From a virus: a DNA stretch of 48,714 bases. A model generated the notes under the pieces. That model made no database searches. It saw only the letters and a program-made list of their open reading frames with translations, and was not told where the DNA came from. Below are positions 33,434 through 48,714 of the stretch, piece by piece. Numbering within the stretch: position 1 is the stretch's first letter; each line of letters begins with the position of its first letter. Where the stretch lies: positions 1 to 48,714 of the IMG/VR virus record IMGVR_UViG_3300021255_001652; one strand, given 5' to 3'. Made by a program: the position numbers and the translations under genes.

Positions 33434-34222
33434 ATGGCAACTTTTGCTTTTTCAGATTTACATGCTCAATATGATCTTTGGATACAGATTAAAGAATATA
33501 TTAAATCAGAAGATATTGTTTATTGTCTTGGCGATTGTGTAGATCGAGGTAATGTTGGTCTTGAAATTTTAAATGAAATTATAGAAACTCCTAATATTAT
33601 TCTTCTTCGCGGCAATCACGAAGATTTTATTGACAGTATTGGGTCTGAAGTTATGCGCTGTAAATCTAATAAAAATATTATTTGGGGAATTCCTAATATG
33701 CGTCTTTGGTATATGAACGGGGCAGAAAAAACTATTGAAGCTTTTAGTCAATTATCAAAAGAAGAACAATACCATCTTATCAATAAGATTCGAAAACTTC
33801 CTACTCATGTTGAATATACTAATATTAATGGAGATATAATTTATCTTTGTCATGCGGGCAGGCAGCCAAATACAAAAGAAATTGCGGATATGCAGCAAGG
33901 CGATATCCCTATGAATAACTATATTTGGGATCGTTATCATCTTAAACAATTACATTGGGATGGTAAAGATAATGAATATTGCGTTCATGGTCACACTCCT
34001 GTTGAATATTTTTATTATTACGGTAATCCAGAGTTTGATCTACCCGCATCCAGATTTGAAATATATAGATATTGTGATGGTCACAAGATTGATATTGATC
34101 TTGGTGCTTTTAATACACACCGCGCATGTCTATTAAATCTTGATACATTTGAATCAATCTATTTTAAAGATAGAACTATTTCTAAAAAAGAATGGGAGGT
34201 AGTAGATAATGGAGTCGAATAA
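33434..34222 (+). CDS. PPP-family Ser/Thr phosphatase-like metallophosphoesterase (GDxxDRG ... GNHE)
   Basis: ORF track; motifs GDCVDRG, RGNHE. Confidence 0.8.
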   Translation: MATFAFSDLHAQYDLWIQIKEYIKSEDIVYCLGDCVDRGNVGLEILNEIIETPNIILLRGNHEDFIDSIGSEVMRCKSNKNIIWGIPNMRLWYMNGAEKTIEAFSQLSKEEQYHLINKIRKLPTHVEYTNINGDIIYLCHAGRQPNTKEIADMQQGDIPMNNYIWDRYHLKQLHWDGKDNEYCVHGHTPVEYFYYYGNPEFDLPASRFEIYRYCDGHKIDIDLGAFNTHRACLLNLDTFESIYFKDRTISKKEWEVVDNGVE

Positions 34223-34502
34223 ATATTTAATTAGTAAAAATGATTTACTTGCTTTTTTACGCTATGAAATATTATATAAATGGAAAGAAGCTGCAAAATC
34301 AAATCCCGAAAATGAAGATTTTGGATTTTATTTATTGAAAGAAACTCCATATCAACCAGATTCAGATTTTATACAATCTTTATGTAAAACAAAAGAAGAA
34401 CATGAAAACCCTATTAAAACTGGTATTTATAATGATATTTTACCTGCGGATGTTGCAAGATACCAAGCGGCAACTTTATATAAACCTTATAAGAAAAATT
34501 AA
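34209..34502 (+). CDS. hypothetical protein 97 aa
   Basis: ORF track; RBS GGGAGG. Confidence 0.55.
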   Translation: MESNKYLISKNDLLAFLRYEILYKWKEAAKSNPENEDFGFYLLKETPYQPDSDFIQSLCKTKEEHENPIKTGIYNDILPADVARYQAATLYKPYKKN

Positions 34503-34555
34503 AACAAAATATAAATTAGTAATGTTTTATTTAATTTAAAAAGGAAAATAAAAAT

Positions 34556-34738
34556 ATGAATAATAATGTTGGAAGCAGTATTGGATTATTTGATGTTATT
34601 TTAGTAGTAAATATTATACTTAAACTTATTGGTATAATTAATTGGAGTTGGTGGGTTGTACTATGGCCTCTTTGGGTTAGTATTGTAATTATAATTATTT
34701 TTATTATTATTTTTACAATCATAAAGAAGAAAATGTGA
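34556..34738 (+). CDS. small hydrophobic membrane protein, 60 aa
   Basis: ORF track; two TM-like stretches; TGA stop. Confidence 0.5.
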   Translation: MNNNVGSSIGLFDVILVVNIILKLIGIINWSWWVVLWPLWVSIVIIIIFIIIFTIIKKKM

Positions 34739-34784
34739 TAATAAATGATGAAGTAGATTATCGCTACTGTGTTGATAAATTAAT

Positions 34785-34812
34785 TGATTTTTAATAATTT
34801 TTTTGATATAAT
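34785..34812 (+). promoter_or_regulatory. early promoter TTGATT - 16 nt - TGaTATAAT
   Basis: seen upstream of the MVP-like gene. Confidence 0.45.
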
Positions 34813-45322: not shown

Positions 45323-46837
45323 TAAAAAAGATAAACATTTATATGACGAAAACAGTATTGAATCACTTGACCCATTACAATTTACAAGACTTCGTCCTCA
45401 AGTATATGCAGGTGACTGCACATATTCAACTCAGTTGTTAGTTGAAATTATTTCTAATGCTGTTGATGAATATCGTCTTGGACATGGTAATAAAATTGAC
45501 GTTACTATTAATAAAGATATTGTTTCTGTTCAAGATTATGGACAAGGTTTTATCCCTAATTCTTTTAGAGAAGATGGAAAAACTATTCTTGAAGCAGCTT
45601 TTAGTGTATTAAATACATCTGGTAAATATCGAGATGACGGAACATACGAAGGTACATCATTAGGATCTTTTGGAATTGGTTCTAAAATTACAACTTTTCT
45701 TTCTCATTGGTTAAATGTAGAAACATATAGAAATACAGAAGCAGAAAGAGTTTGTTTTGTTGAAGGAATTTTTAAAAATAGAAATACATACTATTCTACA
45801 AAAAATCAACCTATTAATGGAACTTTTGTACAGTGGCAACCATCAGAAGAATTTTTTACTCACACCGAAGTAGAAATTAATAAGATTAGAGATTTATTTA
45901 AAACTATTGTATGTCTTTGTCCTGGATTAACCATTAATTTAAATAATAATGGTAAAACAGAAATTTTCACTTCTACACATGGTATTAATGATCTTGTGGA
46001 TGAAGCTGTAAAAGATACAGAACTTATTAATAATCGTTTTTCAATGAATTTCTCAGAAGGTAAGAATAAACTTGATATGGTTCTTACTTATGCTGGAAAT
46101 TATTCTTCAACCATTGTTCCTTATGTTAATACTGGTTTAACAGAATCTGGACCTCATATTACTCAGATTAAGACTGTTATTACAAGAGAATTTAACAAAT
46201 TCTTTAAAGAAAAGAAATGGTTAAAAGAAAAAGATACAAATTTAACTGGTGATGATATTCAAGAAGGAATGTATGTGGTATTTAATATTACTGCCCCTAA
46301 TGTTGGATATGATGCACAGGTTAAAAGTAGAATTACAAAGATTGATATGACGCCTTTTACTTCTGCTTTAAGCACAAATCTTGAAGTATGGCTAAATAAT
46401 AATGAAAAAGAAGTAAAATCCATTTTTGAAAAGGCAGCTGCTGCTCGTAAAGCACGAGATGCAGCAAAAAAAGCAAGAGACAAGGCAAGAGAGCAAAATA
46501 AAAAGAAACAAAAAGCTCTTAAATTTGATAGTAAACTTGCTGATTGTAATTCAAAAGATAGAAGTAAATGTGAAATTTATATTACTGAGGGAGACAGTGC
46601 ATCTGGTAATTTAAAACTTGCTCGTGATAATGAAACACAGGCGGTTATGCCAGTTAGAGGTAAAATTTTAAACACTCAGAAGGCCACTTTTGCACAAATC
46701 CAAAAAAATGCAGAAATTATGACAATGTGTGATGCGTTCTTTGGACCTGGGGATTGGTCTATCGATCCTAAAACTCTTAAAGTAACATATCATCAGGTAA
46801 GATATGGGAAAATTATTATTATGTCTGATGCAGACGT
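45315..46837 (+). CDS. gyrB: type II topoisomerase B subunit (GyrB / T4 gp39-like ATPase + start of TOPRIM), exon 1
   Basis: GHKL ATPase motifs (VEIISNAVDE, GLH-type region) ending in IIMSDADV; the ORF then runs into intron sequence and stops at 46871. Confidence 0.8.
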
Positions 46838-47893
46838 CAGTAATACGGCGTATGAAAGACTTTTCGCTTAATCAAGCGGGTAAAAATTTTTGGACAACTT
46901 TATATTATGTGATATGTACATTTTTCATATAATATGAAGGAGAAAGAATTTTTGCTAACGGGGAATCCTAAACCAAATGGCATGGAAATCCCGTGGGAAA
47001 CAAATATTAATTCATTCTCTTTCAATATCAACTAATGAAGGAGAATAAAAAATGATAGGAATTTATAAAATAGAAAATTTAAATGATGGTAAAATTTATA
47101 TTGGTCAATCTAATAATATTGAAAGACGTTTTTATGAACATATGACAAAAGGAACTACATCTCGCATTCCTTTGGATGTAGCAATAGAAAAGGAAGGTGC
47201 AGAATCTTTTAGTTATTAGATTGTTGAGTTATGTCCAATAGAACAATTAAATTAGAGAGAAACTTTTTGGATTAAGTTTTTTGGATCTAATATATATGGA
47301 TATAATAAAAATTAGGGCGGTATGTCAAATGTTATAGGAAGTAATAATCCTAAAGCAAAATTGACAGAAAAAGATGTGATTAGAATTAGACAAGCCTATG
47401 CTAATCATGAACGTCAAAAAGATGTATATAAAGAATTTGAAAATAAAATATCTTTTGGTTATTTTCAAAATCTTTGGCAAGGCAAATCTTGGTCACATAT
47501 TATGCCAGAAGTTTTTACAAAAGAAAATAAATAGTATTATATTTATCAAAACTCGCAAGGCAGTAATGGAGCCTCAGCTCAATTTACAGACGAAGAAGTT
47601 ATTCAACTTCGACATAGATATGTAAATGAAACTGCCAAAAAGATTTACGAAGATTATAAAGATCGAGTATCCTATCAAACATTTCAAGCAATGCTTTGGG
47701 GAAGAAGTTACTCAACACTTCCTATTTATAAAAAGAAAGAAAAGAAATGGATTAATATTTGAACCTGTATCGACTATTCCCTTTGCCTTATGGGCGGGGA
47801 AGTAGGGCTGTTATTGATACGCAGTTCGAAATGGTCTCCTCTCAATAGAGAGTAAAAGATAGTCAGTGCTCATGGAAACATGAGAATTACACG
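46838..47893 (+). mobile_element. probable group I intron (1056 nt) in the TOPRIM motif of gyrB, carrying a homing endonuclease ORF
   Basis: exon junction restores IIMSDADV|DGAHIKNLFYTF (canonical DADVDG.HI); 5' exon ends in T, intron ends in G; GACTA ... AAGATAGTC (P7 R/S-like elements); ctcatg-GAAA-catgag GNRA hairpin near the 3' end; GC-rich structured 3' segment. Confidence 0.6.
47052..47762 (+). CDS. intron-encoded GIY-YIG homing endonuclease, 236 aa, 4 in-frame TAG, TGA stop
   Basis: RBS AAGGAG; IYKIENLNDGKIYIGQSNNIERRFYEH ... IVELCP ... RETFWI (GIY-YIG) followed by two helix-turn-helix-like modules; TAGs at 47217, 47253, 47313, 47532 all in frame; the 3' end overlaps the intron core. 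Confidence 0.7.
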
Positions 47894-48302
47894 CGATGGA
47901 GCACATATTAAAAATCTTTTTTATACATTTATATGGAACTTTTGTCCAGATTTAATTAAAGATGGTTATGTATATGCGGGCGTGCCACCTCTTTATAAAA
48001 TTACTCTTGCCGCAAATAAAGGATATAAATATCTTAAAAATGATGAAGCATTAGCTGAATATCAAAAAGAAAATAAAGGAAAGAAATATCAAGTTGGTCG
48101 TATGAAGGGTCTTGGTGAGATGGATGTTGAAGAAACAGAAGAAACTCTAACAGATCCTAATAATAGAATTATTAAACAAATTAATGTTGAAGATGTTGCG
48201 GCAGCTGATAAACTTTTTAATGATTTAATGGGTAATGCTGTCATCCCGCGTAAGCGTTATATTAAAGAACACAGTTCTGAGGCAACCTATAATGCAGAAT
48301 AA
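47894..48302 (+). CDS. gyrB: gyrB exon 2 (TOPRIM C-terminal part: DGAHI ... YKGLGEM-type)
   Basis: DGAHIKNLFYTFIWNFCPDLIKDGYVYAGVPPLYK ... RMKGLGEMDVEE matches GyrB DGSHIRTLLLTFFYR ... PPLYK ... RYKGLGEM. Confidence 0.75.
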
Positions 48303-48484
48303 TCGTTTAATTCAAATGAATCAATGGGGTTCATATATCTACGTTGGAAAGTATAAAAAAGGTATTTATAAAAATTGGGGAGATTATGCAGAAGATTTAA
48401 GTCCTCAAAGCATAGAGTAGATTATGAAAAAACTTTATTATTTTGAAGAAAATTTAGAACAATTATAGGAGGATTTAAATAAAA

Positions 48485-48714
48485 ATGCAGAATGATTTAA
48501 CAAAAGAATTAGGTACAAACTTTATAGAATACGCTGTTGCGGTTAATACTGATCGAGCTATCCCCAATGCGAAAGATGGATTAAAACCAGTTGCAAAACG
48601 AATTTTATGGGGCGCAGAAGATAAGACTAAATGCATATCAAGTAAGCCGCATGTAAAAGCAGCAAAACTTGTTGGTGATATTATGGGTACATATCATCCA
48701 CATGGCGATAGTTC
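48485..48714 (+). CDS. gyrA: type II topoisomerase A subunit (GyrA / gp52-like) N-terminus, truncated by window end
   Basis: DGLKPVAKRILWG ... GDIMGTYHPHGDS matches GyrA DGLKPVHRR ... GKYHPHGDS. Confidence 0.75.
   Translation, partial: MQNDLTKELGTNFIEYAVAVNTDRAIPNAKDGLKPVAKRILWGAEDKTKCISSKPHVKAAKLVGDIMGTYHPHGDS

Follow-up and report, generated by a model that had tools for sequence, protein, structure and literature searches.

A phage lineage with two coding dialects in which TAG most likely means glutamate

Phages that recode a stop codon in only part of their genes were described by Borges et al. (bioRxiv 10.1101/2021.08.26.457843): replication genes follow the standard code, structural and lysis genes are recoded, a recoded intron endonuclease sits in an early gene, and integrases avoid recoded stops. 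In the model of Borges et al., host machinery translates the early genes, and a suppressor tRNA then opens the recoded genes. The block-wise "multiple genetic codes" reported with Mgcod (bioRxiv 10.1101/2022.06.29.495998) are the same phenomenon. The TAG-recoded 136-kb phages phAss-1 and proposed Phassvirus (PMC10607447), with probable Clostridia hosts, carry TAG in about 28% of open reading frames (ORFs), mostly virion genes, and have a large tRNA array with a tRNA(CUA) but no phage aminoacyl-tRNA synthetase (aaRS); TAG was assigned to glutamine (Gln) by TerL alignments and tRNAscan. Genetic code 15, in which TAG specifies Gln, has been validated by metaproteomics in crAss-like phages (PMC9523058). 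Here we analyzed the use of TAG codons in a 48,714-nucleotide stretch of viral DNA, positions 1 to 48,714 of IMG/VR record IMGVR_UViG_3300021255_001652 (hereafter the window; 48.7 kb, 31% GC), and in its relatives.

The window is a segment of a phage genome of about 130–140 kb with two coding dialects. It resembles the phages of Borges et al. (crAss-like, Agate, Jade, Topaz and other clades) in its recoded stops in structural and lysis genes, its standard-code replication genes, a recoded homing endonuclease inserted in an early gene, a suppressor tRNA in a phage tRNA array (here in relatives), its low GC and a host that is probably standard-code. The split between early and late genes is the hypothesis already published by Borges et al., and the pattern itself is not new. 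Unlike in those phages, TAG here apparently specifies glutamate (Glu) through a tRNA-Glu-type suppressor and not Gln, the holin is not recoded, a tyrosine recombinase is recoded, and no "code-change module" of release factor and aaRS genes was seen beside the tRNA array of the closest relative. With phAss-1 the lineage of the window shares a similar genome size, a concentration of TAG in virion genes, a large tRNA array with tRNA(CUA) (here in relatives) and no phage aaRS seen; it differs in the Glu reading, and we found no nucleotide similarity between phAss-1 and the window. As in code 15, TAG is the sole reassigned stop, with TAA and TGA terminating, but Glu fits better here, whereas more distant members of the same phage family look like code 15.

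The nuclear code of peritrich ciliates (NCBI table 30) reads both TAA and TAG as Glu. The phage code shares with it the meaning of TAG, but in the phage TAA is the main stop codon and the reassignment affects part of a viral genome, whereas the peritrich code is a eukaryotic nuclear one.

Distribution of TAG in the window and across the clade

The standard code broke many obvious genes in the window. ORF analysis with TAG as sense merged the fragments into ORFs of 2,906, 1,604 and 1,054 amino acids (the last at 1589-4753, plus strand), indicating that TAG is a sense codon, and reading TGA as sense mainly yielded many extra ORFs. The TAG-bearing ORFs were full-length homologues of known families, with domain matches extending across the TAGs. 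TAA and TGA remained terminators, and TAA is the main stop codon in the clade.

We then counted in-frame TAG codons gene by gene; the classes "early" and "late" used here are inferred from gene function alone. The original prediction, made for positions 33434-48714, held that early genes are TAG-free and late and mobile genes TAG-dense, and the per-gene counts bear out this split. All the gene identities it proposed matched by Pfam and PHROGs. There was indeed no in-frame TAG in 15 genes of this region, although these amount to 3,526 codons and not to the ~5,500 claimed. Late genes had been expected to carry one TAG per 80–150 codons and carried 77 in 9,364, or about 1 per 122. The endolysin (7 TAG), two homing endonuclease genes (HEGs; 1 and 4) and the recombinase (1) were TAG-bearing, also as proposed.

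Taking Glu codons as the denominator, we compared the TAG-free genes (0 TAG vs 259 Glu codons) with the late genes (77 vs 565) and confirmed the suspected depletion (Fisher p = 2e-12). It held in the ten early genes with native low GC content at third codon positions (GC3 < 0.2), which had 0 TAG vs 113 Glu codons (p = 2.4e-6). The TAG-free genes contained 87 off-frame TAG trinucleotides and none in frame; the depletion is not a composition effect. In the late genes TAG (77) outnumbered GAG (63) and accounted for about 12% of Glu and TAG codons combined; its use in these genes is regular, not an occasional leak. RuvC had the highest TAG density among the window genes. The features of the window are listed below, with TAG counts in frame.

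1-822, plus strand: 3' part of a DUF2828/DUF7788 vWA gene, GC 46%, 0 TAG
1080-10157, plus strand: tail/baseplate block with TAG as sense, comprising ORFs 1080-1562 (1 TAG), 1589-4753 (9), 4756-6792 (3), 6889-7581 (0), 7599-9830 (4) and 9837-10157 (0)
10199-11935, minus strand: recombinase cassette, 22% GC, with the recombinase at 10199-11200 (1 TAG) and an ORF at 11264-11935 (3 TAG)
12033-17253, minus strand: higher-GC late-strand genes, including a GDSL tail fibre (1 TAG) and an M78-like peptidase (1 TAG)
14472-17253, minus strand: five ORFs with 0 TAG
17524-18012, minus strand: RuvC-like resolvase, 5 TAG in 162 codons
18328-33207, minus strand: late structural genes, including an Amidase_5/NlpC gene (2 TAG) and two small ORFs (0 TAG)
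18819-23633, minus strand: tail protein of 1,604 amino acids, 10 TAG
23976-32696, minus strand: tape measure protein of 2,906 amino acids, 36 TAG
33434-41615, plus strand: TAG-free block (Pfam/PHROGs), 0 in-frame TAG, orthologues also TAG-free
33434-34222, 37877-38722 and 41055-41615, plus strand: three metallophosphoesterases (Pfam/PHROGs)
34209-34502 and 34556-34738, plus strand: two small ORFs, 0 TAG
34847-37339, plus strand: MVP-shoulder protein (Pfam/PHROGs)
37459-37884, plus strand: DenV glycosylase (Pfam/PHROGs)
38929-40155, plus strand: RNA ligase (Pfam/PHROGs)
40251-40559, plus strand: small Cys-rich ORF, first stop TAG at 40557-40559
40561-41055, plus strand: AAA_33 kinase (Pfam/PHROGs)
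41701-41973, plus strand: holin (Phage_holin_1), 0 TAG
42028-43785, plus strand: endolysin with glucosaminidase, Amidase_2, PG_binding_1 and SH3_3 domains, 7 in-frame TAG
43917-44432, plus strand: RNase H, 0 TAG
44558-45322, plus strand: free-standing GIY-YIG/NUMOD3 homing endonuclease (HEG1), 1 TAG, its end overlapping the start of gyrB
45315-46871, plus strand: N-terminal part of GyrB, 0 TAG, homology to uninterrupted GyrB ending at ...MSDADV (~46838)
46839-47894, plus strand: gyrB intervening sequence, carrying a GIY-YIG endonuclease (HEG2) at 47052-47762, 4 TAG
47880-48302, plus strand: C-terminal part of GyrB, 0 TAG
48485-48714, plus strand: N-terminus of GyrA, running off the window, 0 TAG

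Many relatives of the window were present in IMG/VR, mostly as contigs of 130–177 kb from apparently rumen-type metagenomes and with the same gene order; the clade was seen mainly in metagenomes of this type. We scored orthologues of individual genes in 80 related loci. No in-frame TAG occurred in the N-terminal part of gyrB (80 orthologues, 40,509 codons), its C-terminal part (70 orthologues, 9,335 codons), the kinase (46 orthologues, 7,052 codons) or the RNA ligase (26 orthologues, 10,649 codons). By contrast, in-frame TAG numbered 26 in the endolysin (5 orthologues, 2,467 codons), 27 in HEG1 (6 orthologues, 1,316 codons), 10 in HEG2 (10 orthologues, 2,227 codons) and 88 in the tape measure protein (2 orthologues, 4,938 codons).

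Clustering of all ORFs from 145 loci showed that the distribution is bimodal, with 26 families holding 4 internal TAG in 166,503 codons and 37 families holding 1,764 in 187,967. The TAG-poor families included GyrA (2 TAG in 36,836 codons), GyrB, the NAD-dependent DNA ligase LigA (0 in 28,630), RNA ligase, kinase, NrdG and dUTPase; the TAG-rich families included tails, the tape measure protein, RuvC, homing endonucleases, endolysins and a ThyX-like enzyme. Within the TAG-poor families TAG stood nearly always at the end of the gene (19 terminal occurrences to the 4 internal ones), which indicates that these genes are read in the standard code with TAG as a stop. The original prediction that early genes are translated with the host code thus stands as to TAG being a stop in the TAG-poor class. 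A clean early/late rule has exceptions, namely the holin, which is TAG-poor, and RuvC, the ThyX-like enzyme and the recombinase, which bear TAG. Its single exception to TAA or TGA endings was found as described: the Cys-rich ORF 40251-40559 has TAG as its first stop, and 4 of the 33 members of its family in relatives have a terminal TAG. A single base separates this TAG from the kinase start at 40561, and read-through would extend the ORF by 15 codons to position 40604, overlapping the kinase gene.

The TAG-free ORFs on the late side are not exceptions. The families of 6889-7581 and 9837-10157 have 7.4 and 16.5 TAG per 1000 codons in relatives, and those of the 12033-17253 genes have 1.6–11 per 1000. 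We had considered 14472-17253 as a counter-example and rejected it, because the relatives' members of these families carry TAG; the zero counts in all three places are sampling noise. Dozens of independent contigs, drawn from many different samples, repeated the gene order of the window and, with it, the mixture of TAG-free and TAG-bearing genes. The two-dialect partition follows gene function and is conserved clade-wide.

The window genes, with tails, a tape measure protein, a Phage_holin_1 holin and a multidomain endolysin, indicate a tailed phage of a Gram-positive host, likely a member of Bacillota. A megablast search of GenBank phages with the window gave nothing useful, and a tblastn search with GyrB found no close phage there (best identity ~33%). 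No Rfam family matched the window at the gathering score.

Amino acid read at TAG and the suppressor tRNA

To decode TAG, we used sites of conserved local context and recorded as partner the codon in the nearest sequence without TAG at that site, calibrating on true Glu, Gln and Lys codons in those genes. Across 42 TAG sites of the window, the partners were Glu at 25, Gln at 8 and Lys at 5, with log-likelihoods (lnL) of -66.9 for Glu and -90.6 for Gln; homologues of the window thus pair TAG mostly with Glu and not with Gln, as code 15 would have it. In relatives of the same type, 178 TAG sites gave 121 Glu and 10 Gln (lnL Glu -278, Gln -490). More distant relatives served as a Gln-type control, and their 127 sites gave 90 Gln and 5 Glu (lnL Glu -416, Gln -179). 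The loci split cleanly into two groups: Glu-to-Gln counts in the Glu type were 26:3 (L093), 18:1 (L109), 14:0 (L055) and 14:0 (L090), whereas five Gln-type loci (L111, L112, L113, L118 and L122) each had 0–2 Glu vs 14–22 Gln. Because the control group returned Gln by the identical method, the Glu signal is more than a vestige of TAG having arisen from GAG.

The identity of the partner codons pointed the same way. The commonest partner was GAA, two mutations away from TAG, and not CAG or AAG, which are one step away. Some alignment columns contained only GAA, GAG and TAG: one in the ThyX-like enzyme (GAA 20, GAG 9, TAG 9) and two in tail proteins (GAA 28, GAG 10, TAG 4; GAA 19, GAG 6, TAG 3). 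The TAG columns of RuvC in relatives were mainly GAA/GAG/TAG, with one mainly AAA and one mixed. An earlier decoding pass over all aligned residues had given mostly Glu within a Glu/Lys/Gln mixture, and diverse endolysin homologues gave mixed Lys and Glu at TAG sites. We considered whether the Glu-rich mixture was mere mutational ancestry (GAG or AAG to TAG) and rejected this on the per-phage split, the Gln-type control and GAA as the main partner.

TAG also occurred at putative catalytic glutamates. Two loci (L008 and L042) have it at the second Glu of the GIY-YIG motif NEKE.FWI, which we take to be the equivalent of catalytic Glu75 of I-TevI. Three others (L057, L050 and L054) have it at the Glu of the D-x-E motif of GH25 endolysins, and a HMMER alignment to PDB 3hmc places it on that residue. 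We regard the GH25 evidence as supportive rather than decisive. Database proteins may conceal such sites: protein P0001 from a large database differs from the table-11 translation of its own locus (L182) and shows Q where the locus has TAG, which suggests that the "Q" in Q/E-only RuvC columns (homologues P0121-P0240) is often TAG.

The relatives also supplied candidate suppressors. In them a large tRNA array that includes tRNA(CUA) immediately precedes the vWA gene, the first gene of the window, at a place that falls beyond the window edge; we found tRNA(CUA) in L073, L105, L110, L177 and L180. In L180 (IMGVR_UViG_3300021387_000645), the closest relative, whose tail protein is 88% identical to that of the window, we located it by walking upstream, as pattern searches of viral contigs were either too strict or matched unrelated phages. 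Genes for tRNA-Glu(UUC), tRNA-Glu(CUC) and tRNA(CUA) are consecutive in this array. The variable loop of this tRNA(CUA) is 4 nt long, as in the neighbouring tRNA-Glu genes, and the D-stem is G10-U11-C12 / G23-A24-C25 within the D-arm GTCAAGCGGTTTAAGAC. In a scan of bacterial genomes, 111 of 113 tRNAs with this D-arm motif were tRNA-Glu, nearly all of them from Bacillota. L105 and L110, both Glu-type loci, have related suppressor tRNAs, and Gln-like tRNA(CUA) occurred only in the more distant L073 and L167. Judged by its architecture, the suppressor of this lineage is a predicted tRNA-Glu derivative, and the L180 tRNA(CUA) is not of the tRNA-Gln type that code 15 implies.

The L180 array comprises 19 tRNAs interspersed with HNH, SHMT, AAA ATPase and GIY-YIG genes (segment 3582-13643), and a sigma-70 family protein (1324-2235) is encoded just upstream. 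L110 also has a tRNA with anticodon UUA (2395-2469), resembling an ochre suppressor, about 1.3 kb from its tRNA(CUA), though TAA is the clade's main stop. Taking the codon partners and the tRNA together, we conclude that TAG most likely means glutamate in this lineage. A search of full-text literature, in which subscription journals were outside coverage, found no report of TAG as Glu in phages, which is absence of evidence only. On balance, we lean towards regarding this as a code new for viruses and bacteria, in which UAG would be read as Glu by a tRNA-Glu-derived CUA suppressor in late and mobile genes only, with UAG as Gln in a sister lineage.

Lysis genes, the gyrB insertion and accessory genes

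The original prediction argued that the TAG-bearing genes among the early ones are those whose premature expression would be harmful. A holin is the lysis protein that is dangerous when made early, and a cytoplasmic endolysin is harmless without it. The argument proved weak, as the holin is TAG-poor (orthologues: 1 internal TAG in 1,231 codons, 4 of 14 ending in TAG) and the endolysin is TAG-rich. Strong terminator-like hairpins bracket the holin (41641-41671 and 41993-42014), another lies 3' of the endolysin (43804-43841), and a good sigma-70-like promoter match lies upstream of RNase H (43855-43883). Given these hairpins on either side of both genes, the holin and endolysin need not share a transcript with early genes and may have their own transcriptional control. 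The endolysin ends in TTA TAG TAA (TAG TAA at 43780-43785), with the last of its 7 in-frame TAG standing terminally in tandem with TAA, and its homologue in L182 has a terminal TAG too.

In gyrB, the sequences encoding ...MSDADV and DGAHIKNLF... are separated by ~1,056 nt that carry the GIY-YIG endonuclease; the gene is continuous (DADVDG) in 66 of 82 relatives. An HEG-bearing insertion at a conserved position, in a gene that relatives have intact, is a feature of group I introns. Searching Rfam Intron_gpI against the insertion gave no match at the gathering score or at E <= 1, and an E-value Rfam search of 44300-48400 returned only a spurious miRNA match. The junction bases fit U|...G| by eye only. 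Either the interruption is an intron that has diverged, or the gene is truly split.

The TAG of the recombinase falls within the catalytic domain, at a position 14 codons upstream of the HPHRFRRT box; the L086/L087 homologue has 6 TAG. Integrases avoid recoded stops according to Borges et al., and this tyrosine recombinase may not be a lysogeny integrase. Together with an ORF without assigned function, it forms a two-gene cassette where two tail-gene blocks converge, with weak (70%) inverted repeats on its two sides (10138-10181 and 11934-11977). We considered an invertible segment here, but the inverted repeats are only this weak.

The accessory genes at 1-822 and within 33434-41615 form an RNA-repair-like set: vWA, MVP-shoulder protein, RNA ligase, AAA_33 kinase and the three metallophosphoesterases. 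The MVP-shoulder protein has 830 amino acids, and such a domain is unusual in a phage.

Explanations for the partition and what they imply

Many Bacillota lack glutaminyl-tRNA synthetase and have a non-discriminating glutamyl-tRNA synthetase (GluRS) that tolerates C36 or G36 in the anticodon; GatCAB recognises U1-A72 and the D-loop of tRNA-Gln. Against this background, we think that a two-dialect genome with a Glu-type suppressor is probably the best explanation. Replication, nucleotide-metabolism and RNA-repair genes and the holin, having no in-frame TAG, would be translatable by unmodified host ribosomes, with TAG serving as an occasional stop codon. In the recoded dialect (tails, tape measure protein, RuvC, endolysin, HEGs and recombinase), TAG would be sense at about 1 per 100 codons, and full-length proteins would appear only once the phage tRNA with anticodon CUA reads it. 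The TAG-free state would reflect a need for translation before, or independently of, suppression and would thus act as a temporal switch. A non-discriminating host GluRS tolerant at anticodon position 36, which may also accept A36, would charge the suppressor, and GatCAB would leave the Glu-tRNA unconverted owing to its G1-C72 pair and tRNA-Glu D-arm. The choice of amino acid may therefore reflect the GluRS/GatCAB pathway of the host.

Several observations weigh against this explanation. A tRNA scan found no tRNA genes in the window, so that the suppressor is known from relatives only, and neither a release factor nor an aaRS gene was seen near the array in the one relative segment, that of L180. 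The 36 TAG in one gene demand almost complete suppression over release factor 1 (RF1). GluRS normally reads the anticodon, so that Glu charging of a CUA tRNA is only putative. A HMMER alignment to PDB 4jz5 shifts the GH25 TAG two residues off the catalytic Glu. Eight window TAG sites pair with Gln, six of them in one tape-measure segment. Five of the seven endolysin TAG sites face a sense codon in the nearest homologue (Lys 3, Glu 1, Ile 1); of the remaining two, one is TAG in the homologue as well and the other is opposite a gap. The Lys pairing may be noise from few sites, or TAG could have been recruited there for its own sake. As to timing, the holin belongs to the TAG-poor class, RuvC (5 TAG in 162 codons) and the ThyX-like enzyme (3.3 per 1000 in relatives) carry TAG despite roles in DNA or nucleotide metabolism, the recombinase requires read-through, and "early" and "late" are only functional guesses.

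These exceptions fit better with a model lacking any temporal switch, in which TAG would be slow and leaky through competition with RF1 and purged from enzymes needing reliable expression but tolerated elsewhere; such a model predicts the depletion in replication enzymes equally well and accommodates RuvC, the ThyX-like enzyme, the recombinase and the holin better than a strict early/late rule. However, it sits poorly with a family distribution that is bimodal and not graded, with most TAG lying in the most abundant and longest virion proteins (the tape measure needing near-complete suppression) and with TAG outnumbering GAG in late genes. Nor does it explain why TAG is a genuine stop in TAG-poor genes, which is sensible only if they are read while TAG terminates, and we consider it unlikely. 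Recent import of the TAG-free genes from standard-code phages or bacteria, with no selection on timing, seems improbable to a similar degree. In its favour, several of these genes have foreign composition: the MVP-like gene has 25 CAG to 2 CAA and 37% GC, the RNA ligase, kinase and vWA genes have more CAG than CAA and 35–46% GC, only 5 orthologues of the MVP-like gene occurred in the first 80 related loci, and GC3 correlated negatively with TAG density (Spearman -0.36, p = 0.04). Yet gyrB, RNase H, DenV and metallophosphoesterases 1 and 3, all with native low GC3, are TAG-free (p = 2.4e-6 for the native set), and the core genes have stayed TAG-free through ~25–30% protein divergence, which requires purifying selection against TAG. 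Synteny in >80 contigs further suggests that gyrA, gyrB and ligA have been inherited vertically for as long as the tail genes. Recent acquisition thus accounts for some of the TAG-free genes, as the foreign codon usage of several accessory ones indicates.

A different objection accepts the two dialects and takes TAG to be Gln as in ordinary code 15, the Glu signal arising from GAG-derived TAG and tolerated Glu-to-Gln replacement. All published recoded TAG phages have been assigned Gln, the relative L073 has a Gln-like tRNA(CUA), and Gln was the partner at 8 of the 42 window sites. Yet a single method returned Gln at 90 of 127 sites in the sister group but Glu at 121 of 178 sites in the Glu-type relatives and 25 of 42 in the window. 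The main partner GAA is two mutations from TAG, TAG occupies putative catalytic Glu positions, and the L180 suppressor has tRNA-Glu architecture and adjoins tRNA-Glu genes; we give the Gln reading only a small chance. An artefact is highly improbable, whether a chimera misassembled from a recoded phage and a standard-code one or a set of pseudogenes in decay. The uneven GC of the window (22–46% per segment) is what such a chimera might show, but the arrangement recurs in many independent contigs, the TAG-bearing HEGs and endolysin lie between TAG-free genes on one strand, and the ORFs with TAG match known families over their full length.

As one more well-documented case of an idea already in print, the early/late split adds little on its own. 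The reading of TAG as Glu would have wider consequences. If it is true, translation with table 15 gets about 1% of late-protein residues wrong, including putative catalytic glutamates, and database entries such as P0001, with Q at TAG, carry wrong residues. A natural UAG-to-Glu suppressor tRNA would be available as a tool. Reassignment of a phage stop codon would pick different amino acids in close relatives, and a reassigned stop would have switched its meaning, or arisen twice, within one phage family. There would also be a testable link between host aminoacylation, through non-discriminating GluRS and GatCAB, and the code that a phage can adopt.

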